From positions 1 to 39,946 of the forward strand of contig JABUUA010000002.1 of the NCBI GenBank assembly GCA_021443405.1: a stretch of DNA of 39,946 bases, written 5' to 3'. Below the pieces are notes generated by a model that was not told where the DNA came from, did not search any database, and worked only from the letters and a program-made list of their open reading frames with translations. Of the stretch, positions 1 through 33,458 are shown in pieces. The position numbers and the translations under genes are program-made. The stretch is from Bacteroidaceae bacterium (GTDB taxonomy: Bacteria; Bacteroidota; Bacteroidia; Bacteroidales; Bacteroidaceae). The stretch's first letter is position 1. Every line of letters begins with the position of its first letter.

Positions 1-2228
1 TGCTGCACGCCGTAGAGCTCGCTGTCGGGCGAGAGGCTGAGCTGGGTGGTCTCGACGGTGGACTGCAGTCCGTTGGCATAGATGGCCTGAACGCCCACGG
101 TGCGCTGGCCGAAGGCGACCTGCGGCAGCGTGGCGGAAGTGGCGGCGGTGGTGGTGGCGAGAGCGCCATCGACAAAGACGTTGTACTTCTCCACCTTGTC
201 GGCGTCGGCGCCCAACTTGGGATTGTCGATGACGAGACCGATGGCCCACGATACCTCGTTGGTGGTGGCGGATTGCTGGGCCAGCGCGTAGAGCGAGTCG
301 AACTTGGGGTCGATGGGGAGGCGGAGCAGGTCGGTGACGCCGCTGGTGCAGCGGCCGTAAACCATGCCCACCACGTTGTACGAGGCGGTGAGACTGCTCA
401 CGGTGGGAGCGACGCCCACCACGATGTCGTTCTTCAGGTCGCCGATGTTGAGCGTCTTGTCAAGCGCGATGGTGTTGAGCTGGCCGAGGGCGAGGGTCTC
501 GCTGACCTGCTGCTGGTGGAGCGTGGTGAGCGTTCCGTCGGCGGCCATCTCGTAGATGGTGAGCGTCCAGGCGAGCTGGGCCGACATGGGATAGAACTGC
601 ACGGCGCGAATCTGCTGGCCCTTGTACTGCAGCATCTCCTCGCGGTCGATGCGGATGGCCACCTCGAAGGAGTTGTCGCCGCCGCCGAAACCGACAATCT
701 CGTCGGTGGCGTCGTCGAAGTAACCCTTGGTGATGTGGTTGGTGCGGGGCGCATGCCACTGGATGGCAGCGCCTTGGAAACCGCGCTGACGGGCAAACAC
801 GGCGTAGGGCGACTGCAGGCAAGAGGTGGTCACCTCGGCGCTGGCAGCGGCCGTAGCGGGACTGGTGGTTCCGTCGGCATAAGTGGCGGCCACGCTGTAG
901 GCGTAAGTGCCGTCGGAAAGATTATTGTCGAAGAAGAGACGGCTGGTGGCGGGCACTTCGGCCACGGCGTTGCCGTCGCGATAGACGATGTACTTTTGCA
1001 CAGCCTCGGCGTTGGCGAGCGGCGCTTTCCACTCCACGCGGGCCGTCCCCTCGCCACGCAGTCCGCGGGCCTTGAGACCGCAGGGAGCGCGGTGGGTGAG
1101 TTCCTGGTCCGTCAGCACGATGGAGCTCTGGGTGTAACCCGTGGGCTCGTAGTGATAGAAGCCCATGGCCTTGGCGTCGGCCGAGATGGCATAGCCGCAC
1201 TGCACCACGGGATAGGGGAACTGCTCAGGGTCGTAGAAGACATAGGGGTCGTTGAAGAAGTCGTGAATGCCCTGCTCCTTGAAGTAGTCGGTGACGAAGT
1301 GGGGCGTTCCGTCCTTGTAGATGATGGCGCGGTTCAGTCCGTCGTCGGCCTCGTAACCGAGGATGGTCCCGTCGTCGGCCAGGGCAAAAATGTCGAAGTT
1401 GGCGGGATTGTCGCTGATGGTTCGCACGTTGGTCATCTCCTGCGTCTCCACGTCATAGACGACGTCCATGTTGGCGGCCCTGTTCAGCAGTGTGTTCTTC
1501 CAGCCGTTCCACATGAGCACTTTCTTGCCGTCGCTGGTGAACTGCTTGGCGGCACACCAGGGAGCGCCGTAGCGACTGAGCACGCGGGGCGACTCCTCGG
1601 CCAGGTTCCACACGAAGGAATAGCGGACTCCGTAGTCGTCGGTGATGTATTTCCAGCCGCCGATGTGGGAGCCGTCGCACGAAATGCAGTAGGGAACGCA
1701 GTCGGTTCCGTCGAACAAATCGCGGTAGAGCTGACCGTCCTTCCAGACCATGGGATGCAGCTTCCCTTCGATGTAGGAAGCGCCCGTCATCCAACGGCCG
1801 TCGGGCGAAATGCCGCCGGCAATGCCGCCGCCCATGGAGGCGAACAGCTCAACGCCGGGAACGAACTCGCCCACCATGGGCAACGTGTGCCAACGGTCGG
1901 TGAAGTAGCCCGGAGTCTCCACGGGAGCGCCGTTGGGCGAAATGTCGGTGGCCATGTAGTTGCCCACGACGGTTCCGTCGTTGGCAATGCCCGAGGGAAC
2001 GGAGATTTCGAGCGACGAGAGCATCTGAATCTCATCGCTTTCCAAGTTCCAGCGGAAGGCGAAGGGGTTGTAACTGTAGTCGTAATAAACACCGGCCGCC
2101 CACTTGCCGTTGGGCGAGATGTAGATAATCTGATACTCCTGCGGCGAGCGAAGCACCAGCGTTCCGCGCTCGGCCATGGCGCTCAGCGCCGAGAGCACGA
2201 GAACGAGGGACAAAAGAATGCTTTTCAT
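1..2228 (-). CDS. Secreted multidomain surface protein, 5' part only. The ORF runs off the left edge and is absent from the supplied track. It has a signal peptide, beta-propeller-type repeats (HAF/PD40-like), then FN3/Ig-like modules.
   Basis: ATG at 2228 (cat 2226-2228). My own translation is MKSILLSLVLVLSALSAMAERGTLVLRSP... and stays open for 742 codons to position 3 (...TVETTQLSLSPDSELYGVQ). Repeats: ISPNGKWAAG, IANDGTVVGNY, ISPDGRWMTG, ISCDGSHIGG, FTSDGKKVLMW, LADDGTILGY. FN3-like stretch: KYIVYRDGNAVAEVPATS...YAYSVAATYADG. No listed minus ORF uses this frame. The 696-aa plus ORF is its antisense shadow. Confidence 0.8.
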   Translation of the reverse strand, partial: MKSILLSLVLVLSALSAMAERGTLVLRSPQEYQIIYISPNGKWAAGVYYDYSYNPFAFRWNLESDEIQMLSSLEISVPSGIANDGTVVGNYMATDISPNGAPVETPGYFTDRWHTLPMVGEFVPGVELFASMGGGIAGGISPDGRWMTGASYIEGKLHPMVWKDGQLYRDLFDGTDCVPYCISCDGSHIGGWKYITDDYGVRYSFVWNLAEESPRVLSRYGAPWCAAKQFTSDGKKVLMWNGWKNTLLNRAANMDVVYDVETQEMTNVRTISDNPANFDIFALADDGTILGYEADDGLNRAIIYKDGTPHFVTDYFKEQGIHDFFNDPYVFYDPEQFPYPVVQCGYAISADAKAMGFYHYEPTGYTQSSIVLTDQELTHRAPCGLKARGLRGEGTARVEWKAPLANAEAVQKYIVYRDGNAVAEVPATSRLFFDNNLSDGTYAYSVAATYADGTTSPATAAASAEVTTSCLQSPYAVFARQRGFQGAAIQWHAPRTNHITKGYFDDATDEIVGFGGGDNSFEVAIRIDREEMLQYKGQQIRAVQFYPMSAQLAWTLTIYEMAADGTLTTLHQQQVSETLALGQLNTIALDKTLNIGDLKNDIVVGVAPTVSSLTASYNVVGMVYGRCTSGVTDLLRLPIDPKFDSLYALAQQSATTNEVSWAIGLVIDNPKLGADADKVEKYNVFVDGALATTTAATSATLPQVAFGQRTVGVQAIYANGLQSTVETTQLSLSPDSELYGVQ

Positions 2229-2240
2229 TGTCAAGTTTGT

Positions 2241-2275
2241 AAAAAAAGTTGCTCCTGCGGGGGAGGAGTTTTTTT
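2241..2275 (-). terminator. Weak hairpin with T-tracts on both strands, between the third and fourth cargo genes. Possible attenuator.
   Basis: CTCCT (2252-2256) / AGGAG (2264-2268) with a 7-nt loop. Flanked by A7 (2241-2247) and T7 (2269-2275). The stem is only 5-6 bp. Confidence 0.25.
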
Positions 2276-4673
2276 ATTGCTGAACGAATTTCTTCGAGCC
2301 TTCAATCACAATGCCGCGGTAGTTGCGACCCACGCGCTGGCCCTGCAGATTGTAACGCGGTGAGGCAGCGGCGCGGTCGGTCTCCACTTGCTGGATGGCT
2401 GTGGCGGGGGTGAACTGCAGCGGAGCGGCGCAAGTGAAGCCGCAGCGATAGTCCATGTTGTTGTCGAGTTCCACATACTGCACAATGTACTCACATTCAG
2501 CAGCGGGAGCGGGCAGACCGCAAATCCAGTCGAGCATAAATCCGTATTCATCGACCACCAGATACTTGTCGTCGAGGAACGAGAGACCCTTGGCCATGAC
2601 CACGCCGTCGCAGTAGATGTTGAAGGCGGCGAGACCGGCACGGCGGTCGGCAGCGGGCATGGCGGAGATGAAGACACTGTCGGCGTCGGCGCGCAGAATC
2701 TTGGCGGTGGGCGTGTAACCCAAGCCGGTGGTCATCATCTTGCAGACGAGGTTGGCGCTCTTCTTCCACTGACCGGCAGCGGCATTGTAGTCGTAGCGGA
2801 CGCCCGTCAGCACTTCGTCGTCGTCGGTCTGCGAATAAACCACCTGATAAAGATTCGTCTTGGTGATGTTGCCGTTGGAGCGGACCTTGTTCTGCGTGGT
2901 GGTGCTCTCGGTCAGGAAGTCGTTGCTGTCGTAAGTGTAAGTGGTCTCGACATACTGCGTGTGAGCTTCGTTCCAGACGGCCTCGGTGAGCAGACGGCCG
3001 CGCTCGTTGTAAGTGCGGTCGGCTCCCGCCTCGCGAACATATTCGGTGAGCTCGTCAGTGCCGTCGGCCGTAACGTTGTAAGTGGCGCGGCGCATCACGG
3101 TGTCGTCGCCGCCATAGAGCCAGACGGTCTTCTGGGCGGGAACACTGGCGTCGTCGAAGGTGGTCAGCTGCTCGGTGATAGAGCGGGCGTCGTAGGTCAC
3201 CGTCACATAGTCCTTGGGATTCACGGTGAGATAGTCGCTGTTGGCCTTTCCAATCGGATAGACGGCCTGCACAAGGAAGGCAAACTCCTCGCTCATTCCT
3301 TCGAGGGTCCACTCCAAAGCCTGACCGTCGGCGTTGCGATTGTCGGCAGCGACGAAGTTCTTCAGAATCACGTTGTAGCGCAAGGGCTTCAGGTCGTCGG
3401 CATACTGCGGCTCGTCCCAAGCCACGGTGACGGAGTAGTCGCCGTACTTGTCCTTCTCGGCGCCCACAACTCGGAGATTGGTGGGAGCGGCGAGCGGTGT
3501 ATTGTGAACTTCGCTGACGGGGTTGCTCACCAGCCACTCACGGGCAATCTTCCCGTCGTCGTCCAGCTCCACATACTGAGCCATATACTCGTGATAACCG
3601 TTCGGCAGACCGGTCACGCTGTAGTGAAGATTGCCGTCGGCCTCGACCTCGCTGACCGGGAGAACGACCATCGTGCGGGCGCGGTCCATCAACTTCACCG
3701 CGGCTTTGGGGTTCGACTTCACTGCGGCTGGAAGTTCGATGCAGAAGAACGTGGCGTTGTAGGCCGTGGACTCTTTCTTCTCCAGCGTGAGCACGGGAGC
3801 TTGCTGACCGGTGTAGTCGGCATATTCCTCCACCGAAGTAGTGGCGTTGTTGCTCCACATGTCCATGAAGTAAGACTGACTCTTGCGGCGGATGCGCAGG
3901 GGATTCTCGCTCTCCTTGGTGTAGAGCATGCGGTAGTTGTCGGCCTCTACGCCGTTCTCATCCACACGCTTCTCCTCATACATGGTGCAGAACCCCGTCT
4001 CGTCGTAAGTCCAATACTGAGCGCCCTTGAGCAACGTGAGGTTCTCGGGGCTGTAGTGCAACTCCGAAACCTTGTTGCCGTCGGCGTTGTAAGTAATCAC
4101 GCCCGTGTAGTTGTAAGAATCCCAACGGCCCGAGTTCTGCACTTTCACACAACGGCCCTGCTCGTCGTACTCCGTATATACAGTAGTCTCGGCGAGAGCG
4201 CTCTCCAGTGTCCAGGCGTCATAGGTATAACGCTCTTTCTTCACCAGATAGCCCTCGTCGCTGTAAGTGTAGTCCAAGCGCTGGTAACCTTCGGAATATT
4301 CGCTAACGATCTGGCCCTTATCGTCATAAGTATAGTAAGTCGTGTCTTTGTTCGACTTGAAGGCAATGTCCTCGCCGTCGTAAGGTCCATACTGCTCGCT
4401 CCACGTCTTGGTAATCAAACCGGCGGCGTTGTATTCATAAGTGGTCAGGCGACTCAGTTCATAAATGCCTGTCGCGTAGTTACGACCATAATGAGCCTTG
4501 CTGAGCAGCTGGCCCTGCTGATTGTAAAAGCAAGCGTCATAAACAGAGATAACGTCGTTGGCCGTCTGACCCATGGCGTCGCCATACACTTGGTTGTAGC
4601 GCAGACGAAGGTCTTGTGCCGAAACGCCAACCGTAGCGAGCAACGCTAAAAGTGTGAGTAGAGTTTTCTTCAT
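2274..4673 (-). CDS. T9SS-secreted protein with YD/RHS-like beta-hairpin repeats, an FN3-like module and a type-A T9SS C-terminal sorting domain.
   Basis: Signal peptide MKKTLLTLLALLATVGVSAQ. Repeats: TYEYNAAGLITKT, YYTYDDKGQIVSEY, DYTYSDEGYLVKK, TEYDEQGRCVKV, ITYNADGNKVSEL, TYTYDSNDFLTES. FN3-like stretch: APTNLRVVGAEKD...VTVAWDEP. C-terminus: SPRYNLQGQRVGRNYRGIVIEGSKKFVQQ. Confidence 0.8.
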   Translation of the reverse strand: MKKTLLTLLALLATVGVSAQDLRLRYNQVYGDAMGQTANDVISVYDACFYNQQGQLLSKAHYGRNYATGIYELSRLTTYEYNAAGLITKTWSEQYGPYDGEDIAFKSNKDTTYYTYDDKGQIVSEYSEGYQRLDYTYSDEGYLVKKERYTYDAWTLESALAETTVYTEYDEQGRCVKVQNSGRWDSYNYTGVITYNADGNKVSELHYSPENLTLLKGAQYWTYDETGFCTMYEEKRVDENGVEADNYRMLYTKESENPLRIRRKSQSYFMDMWSNNATTSVEEYADYTGQQAPVLTLEKKESTAYNATFFCIELPAAVKSNPKAAVKLMDRARTMVVLPVSEVEADGNLHYSVTGLPNGYHEYMAQYVELDDDGKIAREWLVSNPVSEVHNTPLAAPTNLRVVGAEKDKYGDYSVTVAWDEPQYADDLKPLRYNVILKNFVAADNRNADGQALEWTLEGMSEEFAFLVQAVYPIGKANSDYLTVNPKDYVTVTYDARSITEQLTTFDDASVPAQKTVWLYGGDDTVMRRATYNVTADGTDELTEYVREAGADRTYNERGRLLTEAVWNEAHTQYVETTYTYDSNDFLTESTTTQNKVRSNGNITKTNLYQVVYSQTDDDEVLTGVRYDYNAAAGQWKKSANLVCKMMTTGLGYTPTAKILRADADSVFISAMPAADRRAGLAAFNIYCDGVVMAKGLSFLDDKYLVVDEYGFMLDWICGLPAPAAECEYIVQYVELDNNMDYRCGFTCAAPLQFTPATAIQQVETDRAAASPRYNLQGQRVGRNYRGIVIEGSKKFVQQ

Positions 4674-4680
4674 AATTTTA

Positions 4681-6399
4681 TTAGTTAATTATTTTCTTTC
4701 CATTCATGATAACAATACCGCGGTAGTTGCGACCCACTCGTTGTCCTTGCAGATTATAACGAACAGCCGACGAAGCACCGCCGGTCACCGCCGTAACGCC
4801 CGTAGCCAATTGCACGGCCGCCTGCGCATCAACCTTGGCAATACTTTCCCGCGCCGTCTCCATCAGCAATTGTTTGGCAGTGGCCGTAGTGAGTGTGGGA
4901 TTGGCTTGCAACATCAGCGCCACCACACCGCTCACCACTGGAGCAGCCATCGAGGTTCCCTGCATATAGCCATAGCGAACGGTGAGGTCGTTGTAGTCGT
5001 AAGCATGTCCAGACAAGACGGTTCCGCTGTTGTCGTGACTCGACACGGCCGACAACGTAAGACAGCCGGGAGCCGTCACTTCTGGTTTAGCGCGACCGTC
5101 GGGAGTCGGCCCAACGCTTGAGAACGAACAAAGGACTCCTTCGGTCTCTCCGTCAAGAGTTCGGTCCTGACTCTCACCCAACAAACGGTAAGTAGTGCGC
5201 GTGGCATAAGCTCCCACGGAAATAATGTCGTCGGAAGTTCCACCTATTTCGCAGAGGGTCAACTGATGGTCAGCCGCGCTGAAGCCCTCAATGTTCTTGG
5301 AACTCAGCCCAAGATATACGTTGTCGGCCCACACATTCACTTCTCCCGCAGAGAGAGGAATCACCTGAAGACCAAGAGCGTAACCGTTTCGAACATTGGT
5401 AATGCGGGAAGAAATCATCACATGCAGACAACCGTTGGCGGCGTTGACCTCGGAAGCAACTAAAAGTTCGCCCTTGAGATTGCTCGCAAACGCCACGGTC
5501 TGCGCGCCGGGCTCAGCAGTATTCTCGGCACCGTTCTCAGTTCCCAATCCCTCAAACACGCTGAGAGTTTCGGTGGCAGTCTTAGTCTTGGTATTGTAAC
5601 ACAACAGTCGAACTGCAAAATTTGCACCGGGACGACCCCAGATTTCCACATCGCCCAAAGCATTCTCCGCCGTTGGAGCCGTGCGGTAATCCACAAAAGT
5701 CTGAAGAGGAGCGTCGTCGGAAGAAGCAAAAACAGCGCTGAGATGGAAATCGTCCTTATGATGATTACCCGATGAACCCACAAGCACAAGACCTTCCTGC
5801 TGAAAATCGGCAAGAGCACGGTCAAAAGCCGAAGTGCCGTCGTGCGGTCCTGCTTGATTGCCAAGACTCATATTGATGACACAAGGTTTGCCCACGGACT
5901 GAGCATATTCCCATACATAGCGAATGCCATCCAGAATATTTTGGTTGCCACGCTGGTAATCGGCCTTACTCACCAACACAATCTCTGCTTCAGGCGCAAG
6001 TCCCACAAGGCGCGAAGCCTGAGTCGTGTCGGCCCCGGCAATGATGGCTGTCACGTGACTGCCATGAGAATTATCTGAGATATCGCCCTTTGCACCGAGA
6101 ATTGCTTCGGGAGTGGTCAGTTCCACCCCATAAGAAAAACCTGCGGGAGCCTGCAAGTCCTCAGTAGCGGTTGTACCTTGTTCCCACACACGACTGATGC
6201 GCAGCGTGGTGCGGTCGGCAGAAAGAAAAGCTGGGTGTGTGTAGTCGAAACCGCCATCGATGACGCCCACCACTACCCCACTGCCTAACAAAGAAGCACG
6301 ATGCAGCGCGTCGATACCCAAGTCTCGGCGCACAAGGTCAATGGCTGAAACGCTCAGCGAGACAAGGCACAGAAGCGCCGCACACAGCAATTTTCTCAT
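4681..6399 (-). CDS. Subtilisin-family (S8) serine peptidase with a T9SS C-terminal sorting domain.
   Basis: Signal peptide MRKLLCAALLCLVSLSVSA. Catalytic motifs in D-H-S order: VGVIDGGFD, HGSHVTAIIAG, GTSMAAPVVSG. Oxyanion-like NMSLGN. C-terminus: VRYNLQGQRVGRNYRGIVIMNGKKIIN. Confidence 0.9.
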   Translation of the reverse strand: MRKLLCAALLCLVSLSVSAIDLVRRDLGIDALHRASLLGSGVVVGVIDGGFDYTHPAFLSADRTTLRISRVWEQGTTATEDLQAPAGFSYGVELTTPEAILGAKGDISDNSHGSHVTAIIAGADTTQASRLVGLAPEAEIVLVSKADYQRGNQNILDGIRYVWEYAQSVGKPCVINMSLGNQAGPHDGTSAFDRALADFQQEGLVLVGSSGNHHKDDFHLSAVFASSDDAPLQTFVDYRTAPTAENALGDVEIWGRPGANFAVRLLCYNTKTKTATETLSVFEGLGTENGAENTAEPGAQTVAFASNLKGELLVASEVNAANGCLHVMISSRITNVRNGYALGLQVIPLSAGEVNVWADNVYLGLSSKNIEGFSAADHQLTLCEIGGTSDDIISVGAYATRTTYRLLGESQDRTLDGETEGVLCSFSSVGPTPDGRAKPEVTAPGCLTLSAVSSHDNSGTVLSGHAYDYNDLTVRYGYMQGTSMAAPVVSGVVALMLQANPTLTTATAKQLLMETARESIAKVDAQAAVQLATGVTAVTGGASSAVRYNLQGQRVGRNYRGIVIMNGKKIIN

Positions 6400-26468: not shown

Positions 26469-26970
26469 CAAAAAATATTCCGTTCCACCACGCGTTCCGA
26501 GCCACAATCTTGCTATGGTGCCCTGACTTTTCTGAAAGTTTAACTATATTTAACGATTCTCGTGCGTCAAGTTAAGATATCATAAAGTAAAGGCAAGTTA
26601 AAGGCAAAAGTCGTGAAGAACGCGACTTGCTTTCATTTTTTTAGTAACTTTGCATCGTCAATTGCTGGCGCGCATATCGCAATGCGGGTTTGCAGAGACG
26701 CATACATATAAAAGGCGTTCTAAGACGCTTGACTTCCTTAAAACGAGAATGTCGCAACCTCTCAAGTATATCCTGGAAGTGAAGCAACTAAGGATGTCCC
26801 TTGGGGTGTATTTACATACATCCCACTTTTGGCTAACTATTGTAGGCGGTCTGAAGTGGATGTTGTACATACATGTCGTGGGGTGTCGCGTTGCTCGTTT
26901 CAGGTATATAGGGCAATGCGACAGCCTTCGTTTTATGAAGCGGGTGACAAAGATGGCTCCACGACTCTTT

Positions 26971-27001
26971 TTTGTATGCTTTCCTTACGTTATTAACCTT
27001 G
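26971..27001 (+). promoter_or_regulatory. Near-consensus promoter candidate for the lipid cluster.
   Basis: TTTG (26971-26974)-N19-TAACCTTG (26994-27001), with one mismatch in the -7 box, about 40 nt upstream of the ATG at 27041. An exact TAACTTTG lies at 26645-26652 but has no -33 element. Confidence 0.3.
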
Positions 27002-27040
27002 CATTTGGAGCAGTGCAGCAAACATTATAAGATAGAAGCT

Positions 27041-28378
27041 ATGCATGCGTTGTTCAGAAAGAATTGGGTACAGATAGTTAATACAATTCTTGGCTTGCGA
27101 TTATTATTGTATATGTCATTGTTAGTCTTAAACATGATTCCTTCTGTAAAATTACCATGGCAGACACATCCTTTTCCTTTGCAAAGTTTCTTTTATCACA
27201 CCGAATTCCTAATCAGTTATAGAGGAGGGTATGTAAGGAGAGGTTTGCTGGGAGAATTGCTTTACTTACTTGCAACAAAATTAAACGTTGATATTCAATA
27301 TGTCATTGTCGCGCTTATCTGGGTTGCGTTCCTTGGCTTTGGGTATATCTTTTACCGTTTGTTGCGCAAAAACAGCGTAAGTTGGTGGATAATACCACTT
27401 AGTTATACTTTCTTTGGTGCAGACTTTATTCGCAAGGACTATTTGTGCATGCTCTTTGTTGTATCCATTATATATTTACTGAACAAGGACAGTCTAAATC
27501 GGTGGGCCAAATACATAATGATATGTATTTTATCAGTCGTTCTCTATAATCTGCATGAGGCATTCTTTTTTGTCATAGGTCCTTTCACGGCGTATTATTT
27601 GCTGTTCAAGGATAAAACCTTTGCTTCTTTGGGCGCCCGACTACTATTACAAATACCACTATGGGCCAGTTTTCTCATCCTCCTTGAGCATCATGGTGAT
27701 ATTTCAACAGCATTAGCAATACAGAATTCTTGGCACGAATTGTACCCAAAGCAGATACCATTTATTACCGAGGCAGCATGTGAAATGACATCTCCTCTAT
27801 CGAATTCAATAACTGCACTGGGGTGGGATACGTTTGAAACCCTTACGACACATCTTACAAGAACCTATTTGCACAATGATGGGTATCTGGCAATACCAGA
27901 ACCCCCAGGGTACCTGATAATGCCGATATTCTATTTGTTGATGATGTTCTTATATAGTTATAGCCCATACGTATTCAACGCAAACCAGAAATTATGTAAC
28001 CAACGGAACATTGCATCATTCTTGCTTATTGTTCTTTTTATATTCGCGTCTATGCTTCCCCTTTACTGCGGACTTTCATGTGACACCCAACGTCTTTGTA
28101 TGTATTGGTCTATGACTTCCTTGTCTATCTTATTTATAATGGGACAGGAGAAAGTTGGCGAGATGTTTCCGTCTACACTAAAAAGATTCTCCGAGAAGGT
28201 CGTAGTTGGGATGAACAATATCGTAAAACATCCTAAAGCTGCATGCATATTTATTATGTTATTTGTTGGAGCTCCAGTATGCACATATACCCTCCAACAA
28301 TTCTTTTCCCAAAGTGCATTTGCTTCATTTTTTTACCTTCCTTATGTATGGCTTAGGGATGGCACGAACTTGCTTTAA
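27041..28378 (+). CDS. Orphan polytopic inner-membrane protein with roughly 10 or more hydrophobic spans. Function unknown.
   Basis: The first in-frame ATG is at 27041 (MHALFRKNW...). The track start at 26972 is a TTG. Many hydrophobic segments. Motif YRGGYVRRGLLGE after the first span. Much more AT-rich than downstream genes (about 30% GC in one sampled 60-nt line against about 68% in sampled lines of the UbiA and CDP-alcohol transferase genes). Separated from the UbiA gene by 21 nt. Confidence 0.7.
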   Translation: MHALFRKNWVQIVNTILGLRLLLYMSLLVLNMIPSVKLPWQTHPFPLQSFFYHTEFLISYRGGYVRRGLLGELLYLLATKLNVDIQYVIVALIWVAFLGFGYIFYRLLRKNSVSWWIIPLSYTFFGADFIRKDYLCMLFVVSIIYLLNKDSLNRWAKYIMICILSVVLYNLHEAFFFVIGPFTAYYLLFKDKTFASLGARLLLQIPLWASFLILLEHHGDISTALAIQNSWHELYPKQIPFITEAACEMTSPLSNSITALGWDTFETLTTHLTRTYLHNDGYLAIPEPPGYLIMPIFYLLMMFLYSYSPYVFNANQKLCNQRNIASFLLIVLFIFASMLPLYCGLSCDTQRLCMYWSMTSLSILFIMGQEKVGEMFPSTLKRFSEKVVVGMNNIVKHPKAACIFIMLFVGAPVCTYTLQQFFSQSAFASFFYLPYVWLRDGTNLL

Positions 28379-28399
28379 TATGAACTGTACAGATTCCTC

Positions 28400-29278
28400 A
28401 TGAAGAACTTGTTACAATTACTCCGCCCCCATCAATGGGTGAAGAACGTATTTGTCTTTCTGCCTTTATTCTTCAACGGTCAGTTTGGCAACGTTCGGCT
28501 GCTCGTGCAGTGCGGGTGGGCATTTATGGCCTACTGCTGTGCGGCAAGCGCGATATATTGTTTCAATGACATTTGGGACGTGGAGGCAGACCGGAAGCAT
28601 TACAAGAAGTGCTTGCGGCCCATCGCCTCTGGCGCTGTCAGCAAGACGTCGGCTTATGTGCTTATGGGCTTTATGATTCTGCTGGCCGTAGGGATCGCAA
28701 CGATGTTGTGCGGGACAGGCAGATGGTGGGTGCTGGCCGTCGTTCTGTTCTATTTCTGTTTGAACATTGCCTATTGCGTATGGTTGAAGCGCATTGCGCT
28801 CATCGACGTTTTTGTGATTGCGCTTGGTTTTGTGCTGCGAGTGATAACTGGTGGTGTGGCAACGGGCGTGTGGCTTTCTCATTGGATTCTGATTATGACT
28901 TTTTTGCTCGCGCTATTCCTTGCCTTTGCAAAGCGCCGCGACGATGTGGTGCTTTACGAAGAATCGGGAGTGCTGGCACGCAACAACATCGCTCGCTACA
29001 ATCTGAGCTTCATGAATCAAGCCATAACAATTGTCGCCACCATATCGTTGGTCGCCTACATCATGTACACCATCTCGCCGGAGGTCGTGCAACGGTTCGA
29101 CTCACCGTTCGTTTATTCCACGTCCATCTTTGTGCTGTTGGGCATACTGCGTTTCCTGCAACTTACGATAGTGGACTTGCGCAGCGGCTCGCCCACGAAA
29201 GTGTTGCTCAGCGACCGCTTCCTGCAATGTTGCATCATAGGATGGGTGCTTACCTTCATCCTTATTATATATGTATGA
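28400..29278 (+). CDS. UbiA-family prenyltransferase of the decaprenyl-phosphate 5-phosphoribosyltransferase (DPPR synthase, Rv3806c-like) type.
   Basis: N-terminus LRPHQWVKNVFVFLPLFF. Asp-rich motif NDIWDVEADRKH followed by RPIASG. About 8 hydrophobic spans. C-terminal SPTKVLLSDRFLQ. The family assignment is from remembered motifs, not from a search. Confidence 0.8.
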   Translation: MKNLLQLLRPHQWVKNVFVFLPLFFNGQFGNVRLLVQCGWAFMAYCCAASAIYCFNDIWDVEADRKHYKKCLRPIASGAVSKTSAYVLMGFMILLAVGIATMLCGTGRWWVLAVVLFYFCLNIAYCVWLKRIALIDVFVIALGFVLRVITGGVATGVWLSHWILIMTFLLALFLAFAKRRDDVVLYEESGVLARNNIARYNLSFMNQAITIVATISLVAYIMYTISPEVVQRFDSPFVYSTSIFVLLGILRFLQLTIVDLRSGSPTKVLLSDRFLQCCIIGWVLTFILIIYV

Positions 29279-29288
29279 GGAGTTGTTT

Positions 29289-29891
29289 ATGAAGAACAGC
29301 AAAACGGTGTGCGCATTCGACTTCGACGGGACATTGACCACCAAAGATACGCTGCTGGAGTTTATCCGATACGCAAAAGGAAATCTATCCTTTGTGGTGG
29401 GATTCTCGCTGTTCACGCCCTTGTTCATACTGATGAAACTCAACGTGATGCCCAACTGGAAGGTGAAGCAATGGTTGTTTTCGTGGTATTTCAAGGGGAT
29501 GCGACTGGATGATTTTAACGACGTGTGCAAACGATTTGCGCTGGACAAGAGCTCACTGCTGCGCCCTTGCGGCATGCAGTGTGTAACGAAGGCCATCGAC
29601 ACAGGGGCGGCCGTCGTGATAGTGTCGGCCAGCATCGACAACTGGGTGACACCCTTCTTCAAAGGCTTGCCCGTTGCTGTGTGCGGAACGAGCGTAGAAG
29701 TGGCCGACGGCCGATTGACAGGACGCTTTTCGTCGCCCAACTGCTACGGCGAGGAGAAAGTGCGACGACTGCTTGCGCTACATCCCGACCGCACGTCTTA
29801 TGGGTTGATTGCCTATGGGGATAGCGATGGCGACAAGGCACTTTTATCATTTGCAGACGAAGTATATTACAAACCGTTTCGGTCATGTTGA
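29289..29891 (+). CDS. HAD-IB superfamily phosphatase.
   Basis: Nucleophile motif CAFDFDGTLT. Also VVIVSAS and YGDSDGDKALL. An alternative ATG at 29271 would overlap the UbiA stop by 8 nt. The 3' end overlaps the next gene (ATGTTGA). Confidence 0.8.
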   Translation: MKNSKTVCAFDFDGTLTTKDTLLEFIRYAKGNLSFVVGFSLFTPLFILMKLNVMPNWKVKQWLFSWYFKGMRLDDFNDVCKRFALDKSSLLRPCGMQCVTKAIDTGAAVVIVSASIDNWVTPFFKGLPVAVCGTSVEVADGRLTGRFSSPNCYGEEKVRRLLALHPDRTSYGLIAYGDSDGDKALLSFADEVYYKPFRSC

Positions 29892-30238
29892 AGTATATTA
29901 TAGCACTTATCAGTATTTTGTTGGGGTCTATGGCCCAATACTTCTTGAAAGTAGGCATGTCCCACCTGCCGCAGAGCGTTTCCTTATCCGATAAAGCACT
30001 CTATGCACTCACGTCATTAGACGTATGGATAGGGCTGGCATGCTACGGGTTGAGCATGTTGTTTTGGTTGTATGTGCTTTCCCTGATGGAGTTAAGCAAG
30101 GCATATCCGCTTGTGAGTTTGGGTTATGTGTTCACACTCGCCATCGGCTATTATCTCTTGCACGAACCTGTCAACGTCTGGCGACTAGTGGGCATCGGCT
30201 TGATAGTAGCAGGCGTTTGTTTTATTGCAAAGTCGTAA
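29885..30238 (+). CDS. Small four-helix DMT/SMR-type membrane protein resembling ArnE/ArnF undecaprenyl-phosphate-sugar flippase subunits.
   Basis: 117 aa. Contains SMAQYFLKVG, LSKAYPLVSLGYVF and LLHEPVNVWRLVGIGLIVAGV. From memory, these parallel E. coli ArnE AYPMLSL and LWHEPVS. Confidence 0.65.
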   Translation: MLKYIIALISILLGSMAQYFLKVGMSHLPQSVSLSDKALYALTSLDVWIGLACYGLSMLFWLYVLSLMELSKAYPLVSLGYVFTLAIGYYLLHEPVNVWRLVGIGLIVAGVCFIAKS

Positions 30239-30345
30239 TGCCCCATCGACCTTTAGAACACAAAACGAATCATCGCGCACTTTTCGTCCAACGGCAGAGA
30301 GAGCGTCTCCCACACAAGGCGACGCAGTAAATTTCGGTACAAACT

Positions 30346-30376
30346 TTTGGTTTTACCAAAATAAGCCGTATCTTTG
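30346..30376 (+). promoter_or_regulatory. Consensus Bacteroidota promoter in front of the inositol-lipid genes.
   Basis: TTTG (30346-30349)-N19-TATCTTTG (30369-30376), 32 nt upstream of the ATG at 30408. Confidence 0.6.
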
Positions 30377-30407
30377 CATATCTATTTAGTATTATTCGCG
30401 CGCAAGC

Positions 30408-30902
30408 ATGACGCAAGATAAAATCCGCAAGACCGACGTGGCATTGGTCACCACACTGGGCGCAGGTTTCTGGCCGTGGGGGCCCGGCACCGCAGGAGCT
30501 GCCGTCGGCGTGCTGTTCTGGTGGGTGGGCGCCCTCCTGTTCCCCTACTCCACTGTATGGTGGGGCACGCTCGCAGCTATTGTCCTTGTCAACACTTTTT
30601 CCGTTCCCGCCATCAACCGCATCGAGCGTCATTGGGGCGAAGACCCCAGTCGTGTGGTCATCGACGAGACGGTGGGCGTCTGGATTTGCCTGCTCGGCGT
30701 ACCGGCCACCATGGAGTGGTACTATATCCTTGCCGCGTTCCTGCTGTTCCGTTTCTTCGACATCCTCAAGCCTTTCGGCATTCGCAAGATGGAGGCGTTC
30801 CCCGGAGGATGGGGCGTGATGCTGGACGATATTCTGTCGGGCATCTACGGCCTCGTCGTGCTACTGGCGGCGCAGGTCGTTCTTCTTTGGTTCGCCAACT
30901 GA
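30408..30902 (+). CDS. PgpA-family phosphatidylglycerophosphatase A-like lipid phosphatase. By context, a candidate phosphatidylinositol-phosphate phosphatase.
   Basis: GAGFWPWGPGTAGA, VIDETVGVW, FRFFDILKPFGIRK and GGWGVMLDDILSGIYG all match the PgpA pattern. Confidence 0.85.
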   Translation: MTQDKIRKTDVALVTTLGAGFWPWGPGTAGAAVGVLFWWVGALLFPYSTVWWGTLAAIVLVNTFSVPAINRIERHWGEDPSRVVIDETVGVWICLLGVPATMEWYYILAAFLLFRFFDILKPFGIRKMEAFPGGWGVMLDDILSGIYGLVVLLAAQVVLLWFAN

Positions 30903-30909
30903 TTACATT

Positions 30910-31338
30910 ATGGGAAAGACGCTCCGACAATTAGGCAAGGCACAGCTTTCGGCGGCGACAGCCACGGCGCTCGACTATGCGGTCACGGCCTTTTTGTTTC
31001 GTTTCGTTGGTTTTTCCTATGGCGCCAGCACCCTATGCGGCACGGCATCAGGCGGACTGCTCAACTGCGCCATCAATTACTACTGGACCTTCTCGGGCAA
31101 CAATGTGCGCAAGCGCAACGTACTGTTCAAGTACCTCGTCACGTGGTTGGTAAGCATTGTGCTGAACACCGAAGGCACGGTGTGGATGACAGCTCTGCTG
31201 GAGCACACGGGCATGCCGGCGGGGTTGTCCACACTGATGACCGCCCGCATCATCGTGTCCGTGCTGGTCGCTGTGCTGTGGAACTTCCTTGCGCAGAAAT
31301 TTTTTGTCTATCGCAGAATCAACATCAAAAAACAATAG
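30910..31338 (+). CDS. GtrA-family small membrane protein.
   Basis: 142 aa with four hydrophobic spans. Contains LLNCAINYYWTFSG and LWNFLAQKFFVYRR, typical of GtrA-like proteins. Confidence 0.75.
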   Translation: MGKTLRQLGKAQLSAATATALDYAVTAFLFRFVGFSYGASTLCGTASGGLLNCAINYYWTFSGNNVRKRNVLFKYLVTWLVSIVLNTEGTVWMTALLEHTGMPAGLSTLMTARIIVSVLVAVLWNFLAQKFFVYRRINIKKQ

Positions 31339-31342
31339 CCCT

Positions 31343-32002
31343 ATGGCAAACTTTTACTCAGTTCTTCGCGACGGCATCCAGAAAGCCGTGTACGTGCTCA
31401 TCGACAAGCCCATCGCCTTGGCCGTGAAGATAGGCCTTACGCCCAACGGCATCACCACCCTTGGTCTGCTGGGCAACATACTGGCGGCCGGACTTTTCGT
31501 GCTGGCCACGCTCTACCCCGAACATCAGTACGCCTTCATCGGTTGGGGCGGTGCCACCATCCTCCTCTCCAGCATCATGGACATGGTGGACGGGCGCATG
31601 GCACGCACCTGCGACCTGTGTTCCACGTTCGGTGCTTTCTACGACTCGGTGCTCGACCGCTATTGCGAACTGCTCACCCTTGCCGGCATCGTTTACTATT
31701 TCTTTGCGGTCGGAGAGGAATGGATGGCTCTGGTCACCCTGCTCTCGCTCATCGGCAGCATCATGGTGAGCTATGTCCGTGCTCGCGCCGAAGGTTTGGG
31801 CATTGAATGCAAAGTGGGCCTCATGCAACGTCCCGAGCGCGTGGTGCTCACTTGCTTAGGTGCTGTGCTCTGCGGCGCGCTGGCACCGGTGGTTCCCTTC
31901 CACCCTCTTTGGCTTCTCGTCACGCCGCAAATCATCATCGCTGTGCTGGCTAACATCACAGCCTTCCACCGTATTCTCCACGTAGGCAAGCAGTGCTCAT
32001 GA
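31343..32002 (+). CDS. CDP-alcohol phosphatidyltransferase, phosphatidylinositol-phosphate synthase-like subgroup.
   Basis: Signature D-x2-DG-x2-AR-x8-G-x3-D-x3-D in DMVDGRMARTCDLCSTFGAFYDSVLDRYCE. Also SYVRARAEGLG...QRPERVVL. The start MANFYSVL (ATG at 31343) lies 4 nt after the GtrA stop. Confidence 0.85.
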   Translation: MANFYSVLRDGIQKAVYVLIDKPIALAVKIGLTPNGITTLGLLGNILAAGLFVLATLYPEHQYAFIGWGGATILLSSIMDMVDGRMARTCDLCSTFGAFYDSVLDRYCELLTLAGIVYYFFAVGEEWMALVTLLSLIGSIMVSYVRARAEGLGIECKVGLMQRPERVVLTCLGAVLCGALAPVVPFHPLWLLVTPQIIIAVLANITAFHRILHVGKQCS

Positions 32003-32802
32003 AGCGATTCATACTAAGTCTCATCGGGGTGTTCGCCCCCATCCTCCTCTACGCCGTGCTCTACTTTGCCATGGGACTATGGCCGAGTTGCAACATGCCC
32101 CACATCGACGTGCGCGAACTCTACGAAGCTGAGAAGGCCATCTTTGGCATTGCCACAGAAGCGGGCACGCAGACGCCCGGCGAATGGTTTGCCGAGCACA
32201 CCTACCCCCTCGCCGACTTGTACGCCGGTTTCTCCTATCTTTGCTGGGTGCCACTGCCGGTTCTCTTCGCCTTTGTCCTGTTCTTCCGCGAAGAACGGCC
32301 CCTTGCCTTCCGTTTCATGATGGCGTTCTTAGTGGTGAACCTCATCGGATTCGCAGGCTATTACCTCCATCCCGCGGCGCCGCCATGGTATGTGATGCAG
32401 CACGGCTTCGAGGTCATCAAGGGAACGCCCGGCAATGCGGCGGGCCTCATCCGCTTCGACGAACTGGTGGGCATCCCCGTGTTCCAGAGCATCTATACGG
32501 GCAACAGCAACGTGTTCGCCGCCGTGCCCTCGCTGCATTCCGCCTATCTCCCCATCACCCTCTTCTATGCCTTGAAGAGCCGCCACGCCCGTGGCTGGCT
32601 GCCCATCATCGTGGTGGTGATGTTCGGAATCTGGTTTGCCGCCGTGTATTCTGCCCATCATTATTGCATCGACGTCCTGTTGGGCATTCTCACGGCCCTA
32701 TTTGGCGTCATTCTCTTTGAAAAAGGTTTCAAAAGTCGCACCGGGAAGGCCCTTTTCCAACGCTACGCCGACTTTTTTGCATTAAAAGCACGAAAAAAGT
32801 GA
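31999..32802 (+). CDS. PAP2-superfamily membrane enzyme of the Aur1 / inositol phosphorylceramide synthase type.
   Basis: AAPPWYV, GLIRFDELVGIPVF, NVFAAVPSLHSAY and YSAHHYCIDVLLG parallel fungal Aur1 motifs PPWY, FGAFPSLHS and THHYFVD. ATGA overlap with the preceding gene at 31999-32002. Confidence 0.8.
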   Translation: MKRFILSLIGVFAPILLYAVLYFAMGLWPSCNMPHIDVRELYEAEKAIFGIATEAGTQTPGEWFAEHTYPLADLYAGFSYLCWVPLPVLFAFVLFFREERPLAFRFMMAFLVVNLIGFAGYYLHPAAPPWYVMQHGFEVIKGTPGNAAGLIRFDELVGIPVFQSIYTGNSNVFAAVPSLHSAYLPITLFYALKSRHARGWLPIIVVVMFGIWFAAVYSAHHYCIDVLLGILTALFGVILFEKGFKSRTGKALFQRYADFFALKARKK

Positions 32803-32820: not shown

Positions 32821-32851
32821 TTTGCGTATAAAGAAAAAATGTGTAACTTTG
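32821..32851 (+). promoter_or_regulatory. Consensus Bacteroidota promoter with no protein gene behind it.
   Basis: TTTG (32821-32824)-N19-TAACTTTG (32844-32851). Confidence 0.5.
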
Positions 32852-32856
32852 CAGTA

Positions 32857-32957
32857 CCACTAATATGACATCGGACGTTTCTACTGTCGATGTTAATTTT
32901 TTACTGTCGTTATAATGTACTACTGTACTGGCTCGGGAGAGCCGGTACAGTTTTTTT
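32857..32957 (+). ncRNA. Candidate small RNA of about 100 nt, bounded by the promoter at 32821-32851 and an intrinsic terminator.
   Basis: Two hairpins. ACATCG(G)AC...GTCGATGT (32868-32893) is followed by TAATTTTTT. GTACTGGCTC-GGGA-GAGCCGGTAC (32925-32948) is followed by AG-T7. The transcription start site is assumed, not observed. Confidence 0.4.
32925..32957 (+). terminator. Rho-independent terminator. It ends the lipid operon and/or the candidate sRNA.
   Basis: 10-bp stem with one G-U pair, GGGA loop, and a T7 tract at 32951-32957. Confidence 0.8.
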
Positions 32958-33458
32958 ATGCACCCGCTCCGTCGCCCCAGTCATCCACGGAACCCGGGCA
33001 AGACTTCCAGTTGACAAAATGTCAAAACGCAGGTGGCTCAAAACAGCCGTAAAATAAAATTTCGTCCAGCCGCCCGCTTCTGCGCAACGCCAGCGCGGGA
33101 TATTGTTCGTTGATAATAAGGCGATTGAGAATCTTCATCCCGAGAAAAGGTTGTAAAACCGCCGGAAAATCGGGAAAAACATACGGTCGAATGAGCCAAT
33201 TCGTCCAGACGAATTGCAACATTCATATAGAAGAATCGTCAAAGACAACCGCATGACCCATGCCGGGTCACCGCGGAAACCGTTTTTGGCCCTCCAGATG
33301 ACCTCATACAGTCATCCGTTCATTCTATTTCACTCGAAATTTCGTCTGAAATCCGTCGGCAAAAAGAAAGCGGAACCGCACGAGCGCGCGTAAAGTGAAA
33401 GCAAAAGGCGAGATTCGGCGACCGTCTGGTTATGGGCAATTACATAACAGAACATAAA

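Follow-up and report, generated by a model that had tools for sequence, protein, structure and literature searches.

A predicted pentofuranose cassette with a structured leader RNA beside an inositol-lipid operon in a Bacteroidaceae genome

We analysed a stretch of 39,946 nucleotides from a Bacteroidaceae bacterium (contig JABUUA010000002.1 of assembly GCA_021443405.1), called the window below, and describe a locus of eight genes (g1 to g8) on its forward strand, with the families and order of these genes, the limits and distribution of a cassette among them and the structure of an RNA. The initial annotation of this DNA had read the eight genes as one cluster in which a polyprenyl-phosphate-pentose donor module serves an inositol-lipid module. 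Comparison with related loci makes it likely that the locus consists of two independent operons which stand side by side, a predicted pentofuranose-transfer cassette and an inositol-lipid operon of a known type.

Organisation of the locus

The features of the locus are as follows (DPPRS, decaprenyl-phosphate 5-phosphoribosyltransferase; PPPRS, its polyprenyl-phosphate counterpart; PIP, phosphatidylinositol phosphate; DAG, diacylglycerol).

26645-26652, + strand: predicted -7 promoter box of the cassette, TAACTTTG, a sequence match to TAnnTTTG whose position is shared by the leader copies reaching that far
26652-26975, + strand: 5′ leader RNA of about 330 nt, predicted to be highly structured with an attenuator-like end (hairpin and U-run), from nhmmer, a covariance model and covariation
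27041-28378, + strand: g1, polytopic membrane protein whose family is uncharacterised, candidate glycosyltransferase for a lipid-linked pentose by its association with UbiA genes; the ATG at 27041 is kept in relatives
28400-29278, + strand: g2, predicted polyprenyl-phosphate 5-phosphoribosyltransferase (UbiA enzyme of the DPPRS/PPPRS type; NF008978, PDB 8j8j); 21-nt gap after g1
29271-29891, + strand: g3, HAD-IB phosphatase (PF12710, TIGR01490), probable polyprenyl-phosphate-ribose-5-phosphate 5-phosphatase; 8-nt overlap with g2
29885-30238, + strand: g4, four-helix ArnF/ArnE-like small transporter (NCBIfam ArnF, 2e-21; EamA match), candidate polyprenyl-phosphate-pentose flippase; 7-nt overlap with g3
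30346-30376, + strand: Bacteroidetes-type -33/-7 promoter, TTTG-N19-TAtcTTTG, a sequence pattern match inside the g4-g5 gap
30408-30902, + strand: g5, PgpA-family phosphatase (PF04608, 2e-41), predicted counterpart of BT_1525 (PIP-DAG phosphatase); 169-nt gap after g4
30910-31338, + strand: g6, GtrA-like membrane protein (PF04138, 2e-11), predicted counterpart of BT_1524; 7-nt gap after g5
31343-32002, + strand: g7, predicted phosphatidylinositol-phosphate synthase (CDP-alcohol phosphatidyltransferase; PIPSynBT1523 is its best NCBIfam model), counterpart of BT_1523; 4-nt gap after g6
31999-32802, + strand: g8, Aur1-like PAP2 enzyme (PhinosDhcerSyn; PAP2_3), predicted counterpart of BT_1522 (phosphoinositol dihydroceramide synthase); ATGA overlap with g7
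32821-32958, + strand: promoter-like motif and strong intrinsic terminator, which either close the array or delimit a transcript of their own, about 100 nt long

The eight open reading frames (ORFs) form two tightly packed units split by the 169-nt gap, with the spacing that the initial annotation had given; what it had called a near or actual overlap of g2 and g3 is an overlap of 8 nt. The promoter it had placed in the gap was recovered as a match to the Bacteroidetes -33/-7 pattern, of which a pattern search finds four in the window where 0.42 are expected, and this element (30346-30376) is the predicted promoter of the inositol-lipid operon, separate from the cassette. The start of the array, previously set at 27041, has to be moved: the first unit begins about 390 nt further 5′, at the -7 box (26645-26652), from which it continues into the leader (26652-26975). 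No TTTG of a -33 element was found at canonical spacing from this box.

At the other end, the terminator that had been said to close the array is real and is the strongest of the region (32922-32951, a 13-bp stem followed by a T-run). Its role as the end of the array is less clear, as it lies 120 nt past the g8 stop codon and about 70 nt 3′ of a promoter-like motif, TTTG-N20-TAacTTTG at 32821-32851, which directly follows that stop. The terminator may therefore belong to a separate short transcript. The interval 32821-32958 may encode a small RNA of about 100 nt or an ORF of 16 codons (MTSDVSTVDVNFLLSL); we found nothing similar among the fetched loci.

Pentofuranose and inositol-lipid genes

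Searches of Pfam and NCBIfam bore out all family calls made earlier (DPPRS-type UbiA, HAD-IB, ArnE-like, GtrA, PgpA, PIP synthase and Aur1-like PAP2) and left g1, the orphan polytopic protein of the initial annotation, without a match. Against the NCBIfam model for decaprenyl-phosphate phosphoribosyltransferase (NF008978), g2 scores 215 bits at a cut-off of 207, and its sole match in the PDB is DPPRS of Mycobacterium tuberculosis (8j8j), with E=1e-37 over the full length (residues 4-286). The loop NDxxDxEADRxH is kept, with FNDIWDVEADRKH aligned to VNDVRDVEADREH of 8j8j, and the PDB search returned no MenA, UbiA or CyoE enzyme for g2, in agreement with its earlier assignment to the DPPRS type. 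The phosphatase g3 matches PF12710 at 4e-26 and TIGR01490 with 97.9 bits and carries DFDGT as its DxDGT nucleophile motif. With 39% identity to Escherichia coli ArnF over 80 residues (E=6e-7), g4 fits the part of a candidate flippase, whose place is taken by a GtrA-family protein in at least 11 related cassettes.

From characterised homologues we infer that g2 would transfer ribose-5-phosphate from phosphoribosyl pyrophosphate (PRPP) onto polyprenyl phosphate, that g3 would remove the 5-phosphate from the resulting polyprenyl-phosphate-ribose-5-phosphate and that g4 would flip polyprenyl-phosphate-ribofuranose to the periplasmic face; g1, in a role deduced in turn, as is the nature of the acceptor, would then transfer the sugar to that acceptor. 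Pfam and NCBIfam revealed no oxidoreductase or epimerase among the eight genes, and a cassette that lacks an epimerase would probably use ribofuranose.

Kelly et al. 2024 (PMC11127046) recently described systems of three components that add pentofuranoses outside the cytoplasm: a polyprenyl phosphoribose synthase of the UbiA type, accompanied by a HAD phosphatase; a small flippase, which is ArnEF-like or in some systems of the SMR/GtrA type; and a GT-C transferase (GT136). Optional epimerases decide whether ribofuranose, xylofuranose or arabinofuranose is used, and without them the sugar is ribofuranose (PMC11127046). The cassette in the window resembles the system of Citrobacter youngae O1 (ORF15/ORF14/ORF12; PNAS 2024, PMC11127046) in its UbiA enzyme, predicted to use PRPP, its HAD-family enzyme, a probable 5-phosphatase, its ArnE/F-like candidate flippase and its large polytopic protein, and both are modular and horizontally spread. 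However, the HAD phosphatase is a separate gene in the window and fused in Citrobacter (the paper notes one separate case, on a Caudoviricetes contig), and g1 lacks the C-terminal carbohydrate-binding domain and could be linked by sequence neither to GT136 nor to another GT-C family. Moreover, the window comes from a Bacteroidota host, whereas neither the paper nor its supplement names Bacteroides or Prevotella (PMC11127046), and its cassette lies outside any polysaccharide locus and is preceded by a conserved structured leader RNA. Thus g1 to g4 probably represent a Bacteroidota variant of this recently described pentofuranosylation cassette, and the pentose half of the locus has a published match (PMC11127046).

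Two other systems offer partial parallels. The mycobacterial pathway for decaprenyl-phosphate-arabinose, arabinan and lipoarabinomannan (LAM), with Rv3806c, Rv3807c, DprE1/E2, Rv3789 and Emb/Aft, shares with the window a DPPRS homologue and, as predicted for the window, a dephosphorylation step, a small transporter as flippase and a polytopic enzyme that transfers the sugar outside the cytoplasm, and both have the PIP-synthase route to phosphatidylinositol (PI). In contrast to mycobacteria, the window has no DprE1/E2 epimerase, so that arabinose is not expected; its phosphatase is of the HAD and not of the PAP2 type (Rv3807c), its candidate flippase is ArnF-like and not GtrA-like, and a link between the PI and pentose pathways is unsupported in the window, as no comparative link was found. 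The GtrABC-type cassettes for O-antigen glucosylation of Shigella and Salmonella phages are likewise small, mobile and located away from the main glycan locus; in them, as predicted for the window, a polyprenyl-phosphate-linked sugar is made, flipped and transferred by an acceptor-specific polytopic enzyme, whose gene is the most variable and has a low GC content. They differ in that the donor of the window cassette would be derived from PRPP by a UbiA enzyme and a phosphatase, and not from a UDP-sugar by the GT2 enzyme GtrB, and in that a tblastn search of phage records found no relative of g1.

A search of phage records with the UbiA protein found one gut contig labelled Bacteriophage sp. 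(MT837543.1, 898-5419), which carries UbiA, HAD and flippase genes together with a different transferase candidate, DUF6044, and an SDR epimerase. Furthermore, the cultured strain Prevotella sp. oral taxon 299 F0039 (NC_022111.1, 5947-13538) has UbiA, HAD and GtrA genes together with DUF6080, next to an EptA-like phosphoethanolamine transferase and two O-acyltransferases. By their position, DUF6044 and DUF6080 appear to be candidate pentofuranosyltransferases, seemingly interchangeable in the slot of g1.

The second unit, g5 to g8, corresponds to an operon that has been studied in Bacteroides thetaiotaomicron. There, BT_1526-BT_1522 encode myo-inositol-phosphate synthase (MIPS), a PgpA-like PIP-DAG phosphatase, a GtrA-like protein, PIP synthase and an Aur1-like PI-dihydroceramide synthase (Heaver et al. 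2022, PMC9246714; Sartorio et al. 2022, PMC8791184), and the operon was reported to be necessary and sufficient for synthesis of inositol phosphorylceramide (IPC; PMC8791184). The families, order and orientation of g5 to g8 are those of BT_1525-BT_1522, and the catalytic motifs are kept; the gene order PgpA-GtrA-PIPS-PAP2 is common to the window, B. thetaiotaomicron and two further loci (L088 and L089), in which the GtrA-like gene has the same position as g6 and its product 40% identity. The similarity is nevertheless distant, as g7 and g8 score below the NCBIfam equivalog cut-offs. For g7, PIPSynBT1523 gives 246 bits, under the cut-off of 350 bits, and the motif DmvDGrmAR...GafyDsvlD fits the PIP-synthase signature DX2DGX2AR...GX3DX3D. 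The only NCBIfam match of g8 is PhinosDhcerSyn with 321 bits (1e-95), under the equivalog cut-off of 480 bits, which marks it as a divergent member; in Pfam it matches PAP2_3 at 8e-21, and the nearest of its 3290 relatives at E<=1e-30 is 56% identical.

Judged by families, gene order and motifs, g5 to g8 are a divergent member of the characterised BT_1525-BT_1522-type operon. Hence the earlier expectation of a pathway undescribed in Bacteroidota does not hold for the inositol half (PMC9246714, PMC8791184). If the enzymes act like their characterised homologues, g7 would make PIP-DAG, g5 would dephosphorylate it to PI and g8 would move phosphoinositol onto dihydroceramide, while g6 would assist the unit in an unspecified way. 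Deletion of BT1524 lowered IPC and raised PI in one study (PMC8791184). Because a GtrA-like gene is already part of the B. thetaiotaomicron operon, the presence of g6 needs no pentose module. A tblastn search with Bacteroidales MIPS found no such gene in the window, and the location of MIPS beside the cluster is known to have exceptions, for example in P. copri (Heaver et al. 2022, PMC9246714). A BT_1527-like DUF5686/CarboxypepD_reg protein is encoded downstream.

A different cluster type was seen in the closest g8 relatives (L097, L099 and L101), where genes for a Wzi-like protein, Lipocalin_8, a CDP-alcohol transferase and PAP2 stand together with an optional MIPS and no PgpA or GtrA gene was called or matched. 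This arrangement may be a third layout of Bacteroidales inositol-lipid genes.

A structured leader RNA upstream of g1

The approximately 400 nt 5′ of g1 are better conserved than the genes themselves. A ninth protein gene in this region (ORF 26650-27030) was considered and rejected: close relatives differ by single-base indels, which identifies the region as non-coding. Using nhmmer and a covariance model, we located the leader at 14 strong sites in about 1.6 Mb of loci, among them the Bacteroidaceae metagenome-assembled genome with the closest cassette (L007, 595-925) as well as L055 (17298-17624, - strand), L027 (228-570 and 9467-9807) and L097 (11124-11441). Eleven of the 14 sites lie upstream of g1-UbiA-HAD cassettes, in which g1 is about 27-30% identical to that of the window, save for L005 and L007 (59-60%). 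The leader also precedes an operon in L055 with genes for a small outer-membrane protein, Cys-rich peptides and a radical-SAM/SPASM protein, which resembles loci for ribosomally synthesised and post-translationally modified peptides, four genes for unknown proteins in L027 and, in L097, a gene whose product is a surface protein exceeding 1300 residues.

Conservation of the leader extends to its structure. The long-range helices are 92.7% paired, compared with 37-44% in slid controls, and 17 pairs show compensatory changes, a value reached in none of 500 shuffles. An alternative terminator helix, mutually exclusive with these, is 96.5% paired, and the leader of the window has a minimum free energy of -121.7 kcal/mol (z = -7.25). 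Rfam 15 gave no match at the gathering threshold in the window or in seven other leader loci, and the sole match of a permissive Rfam search of the leader, to mir-33 at E=0.22, is one of chance.

Owing to its palindromic nature, we also considered whether the leader could be an invertible promoter or a miniature inverted-repeat transposable element. Both are less likely, since at all 14 strong sites the leader points the same way with respect to the gene that follows, the -7 box has a fixed position in the copies that reach it, and compensatory changes keep the pairing. The most economical reading of its structure and location is that the leader would act as an attenuator or antitermination-type element for surface-structure operons. 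Whether it may constitute an undescribed class of cis-regulatory RNAs for such operons in Bacteroidales is, in our estimate, an even question.

Relationship of the two units and role of g1

A scan of 185,579 species genomes yielded 271 relatives of g1, and we examined 85 loci with flanks of 1.2 Mb in total, 79 kept from the genome scan and six from metagenome contigs, 68 of which have at least 3 kb of downstream sequence. None of the 85 has a PgpA-, PIPS- or PAP2-type gene near the g1 relative, and none of 15 loci with g8 relatives (ten metagenome loci and five further contigs) has a cassette nearby. The adjacency of the two modules, which the initial annotation had proposed to check across relatives, is thus confined to this genome among the loci examined, and the joint pentosylated inositol lipid it had put forward is unsupported. 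The lack of adjacency elsewhere makes a joint, LAM-like pathway unlikely.

The boundaries of the cassette agree with this picture. In the closest cassette, that of L007, the proteins are 60%, 85%, 72% and 83% identical to g1, g2, g3 and g4, and the cassette is flanked by rpsA and by genes for a GT2 enzyme, a folC-like ligase and ThiF as well as map. DNA homology between the window and L007 covers 26701-30234 and ends at the g4 stop codon, upstream of the promoter at 30346-30376. In other loci, the cassette is followed by defence-like genes (L004), g1-UbiA-HAD lie inside polysaccharide loci (L002 and L003), or a g1 relative stands alone inside such a locus (L001). A census of 124 immediate cassette neighbours gave 143 Pfam families; GtrA was the commonest, following HAD directly in 11 cases as an alternative flippase, and Acyl_transf_3 came next with seven. 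The relatives of the cassette lie in polysaccharide loci or as scattered islands, and no target-site duplications or flanking repeats were found around the cassette in the window.

Base composition also sets g1 apart. Its GC content at third codon positions is 0.40, whereas its operon partners have 0.58-0.66 (0.66 in g2 and g3), g5 to g8 0.73-0.76 and the other genes measured, its native neighbours, 0.57-0.79. The composition of g1 is foreign, as is usual for acceptor-specific genes that are swapped in mobile cassettes. The cassette thus seems to be a mosaic of which the transferase gene is the latest exchanged part.

We therefore consider it likely that the locus comprises two independent adjacent operons, a mobile pentofuranose cassette under control of a leader RNA (26645-30238) and a BT_1525-BT_1522-type operon (30346-32802), and that their juxtaposition in the window is a matter of chance.

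One further gene neighbourhood was noted in the loci of both modules. A TMEM260-like protein of about 1100 residues (GT-C type), usually accompanied by a Polysacc_deac_1 deacetylase, is encoded in L014 (1886-5779), L021 (9865-13245), L097 (1283-5236) and L099 (11135-15122).

Several observations weigh against two independent operons. The TMEM260-like protein directly adjoins g1 cassettes in two loci (L014 and L021), and in four (L097-L100, with two arrangements) it adjoins PIP-synthase, PAP2 or MIPS genes, a neighbourhood which could point to inositol lipids that some Bacteroidales glycosylate. There is no convincing intrinsic terminator between g4 and g5, where we found just a weak hairpin (30198-30214), and as both lie on the same strand, co-transcription by read-through is conceivable. 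The cassette occupies the upstream position in which B. thetaiotaomicron has its inositol-phosphate synthase gene (BT_1526). Sampling of the lineage is sparse, with identities to the nearest relative of 56% for g8 and 65% for g1; an exact look-up of g2 indicated that the window's own proteins have no record elsewhere and that this genome is missing from the assemblies. Finally, g1 is not demonstrably a glycosyltransferase: a Foldseek search of its model against the PDB gave nothing significant (best E 0.66), and hhalign of its profile with E. coli ArnT and with an alignment of TMEM260-like GT-C proteins gave probabilities below 1%.

The sampling, the missing terminator and the TMEM260-like neighbourhood leave a small share of probability to a model in which the units cooperate and g1 adds a pentofuranose from the donor made by g2 to g4 to the inositol lipid of g5 to g8, either PI-DAG or PI-dihydroceramide, to form a small glycolipid reminiscent of LAM or of glycosyl inositol phosphorylceramides (GIPC). 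Mycobacteria build PI-anchored lipoglycans by a parallel enzyme logic, and besides the adjacency of the units on one strand, the GtrA-like g6/BT_1524 has no settled role. We nevertheless regard such cooperation as very unlikely: it is contradicted by the absence of adjacency in the 85 and 15 related loci, the end of the cassette homology at the g4 stop codon, the foreign composition of g1, the promoter of g5 to g8 and the flippase that the cassette brings along. Moreover, g1 has relatives in Akkermansia, Chlorobiota, Flavobacteriia and Sphingobacteriia, whereas Heaver et al. 2022 (PMC9246714) found that Flavobacterium, Sphingobacterium and Chlorobium lack the inositol cluster or have it rarely, and the lipidomics paper on B. 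thetaiotaomicron mentions no glycosylated, hexose, mannose or pentose species by those terms (PMC8791184). The variant in which the units are co-transcribed by read-through and g1 would place ribofuranose on the inositol head-group of PI-dihydroceramide or PI-DAG is equally improbable. If true, a pentofuranosyl-inositol (sphingo)lipid would be a bacterial analogue of GIPC or LAM with a polyprenyl-phosphate donor, undescribed in Bacteroidota.

Within the reading as two independent operons, the function of g1 needs separate consideration. With 3719 cluster representatives at E<=1e-3, its family is large; it has the invariant motifs GG-VRRG (62-68), RKD (131-133), HE (172-173) and D348/R351, and the AlphaFold2 model of g1 is of high confidence (pLDDT, the predicted local distance difference score, 88.9; pTM, the predicted template modelling score, 0.90). 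A profile of the family had no match among PDB sequences. The role as transferase rests on association: a UbiA gene adjoins the g1 relative in 51 and a HAD gene adjoins UbiA in 43 of the 85 loci, and no significant fold or sequence match points to a function. The absence of any significant match to a glycosyltransferase, together with the 34 g1 relatives that have no UbiA gene in their flanks, would also suit a polymerase, ligase, transporter or acyltransferase-like protein, with polyprenyl-phosphate-pentose being used by an enzyme encoded elsewhere. This is quite unlikely in our view, as g1 is the only partner left unassigned in a compact operon of four genes, the other three of which encode proteins that would make and flip the donor, and the association with UbiA recurs in those 51 loci. 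Moreover, GT-C enzymes predominate among the weak Foldseek hits (DPY19, PglB, AftA, ALG3, EmbB and GPI-MT-I), one family member has a sub-threshold PMT_2 match, and other polytopic DUF proteins fill the same slot in sister cassettes.

Context, namely the g1 relatives inside polysaccharide loci, makes a polysaccharide or lipopolysaccharide (LPS) the most likely acceptor. A more specific target would be lipid A or the LPS core, which the cassette could modify in the manner of ArnT, a neutral pentose then altering charge and resistance to cationic peptides. The similarity of g4 to the ArnF/ArnE flippase of the 4-amino-4-deoxy-L-arabinose lipid A pathway points in this direction, as do the UbiA-HAD-GtrA genes beside an EptA-like transferase and O-acyltransferases in Prevotella sp. 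oral taxon 299 and the many cassettes that form stand-alone islands outside polysaccharide loci. However, g1 could not be related to ArnT, several relatives are part of capsule- or O-antigen-type loci, and we know of no pentofuranosylated lipid A, so that we consider this target unlikely.

Elsewhere in the window, positions 1-4700 have a GC content of 59-64%, compared with 42-58% in the remainder, and contain very long overlapping ORFs on both strands (273-2363 and 2388-4649 on the + strand, 2274-4673 on the - strand); those scanned had no Pfam or NCBIfam match. A subtilase and an Omp28-like lipoprotein are encoded 3′ of them.

If the locus consists of two independent operons, little is added to inositol-lipid biology, as g5 to g8 would be a divergent copy of a characterised operon; the actually new parts are the transferase family of the cassette and the leader RNA. 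PRPP-dependent extracytoplasmic pentofuranosylation would then extend to gut and rumen Bacteroidales, Akkermansia and other phyla, with the transferase slot filled by a large uncharacterised family of about 3,700 cluster representatives. The diversity of surface antigens in the microbiota is probably driven in part by such cassettes, and the leader RNA provides a testable candidate for a new class of regulatory RNAs that would control envelope genes in Bacteroidales.

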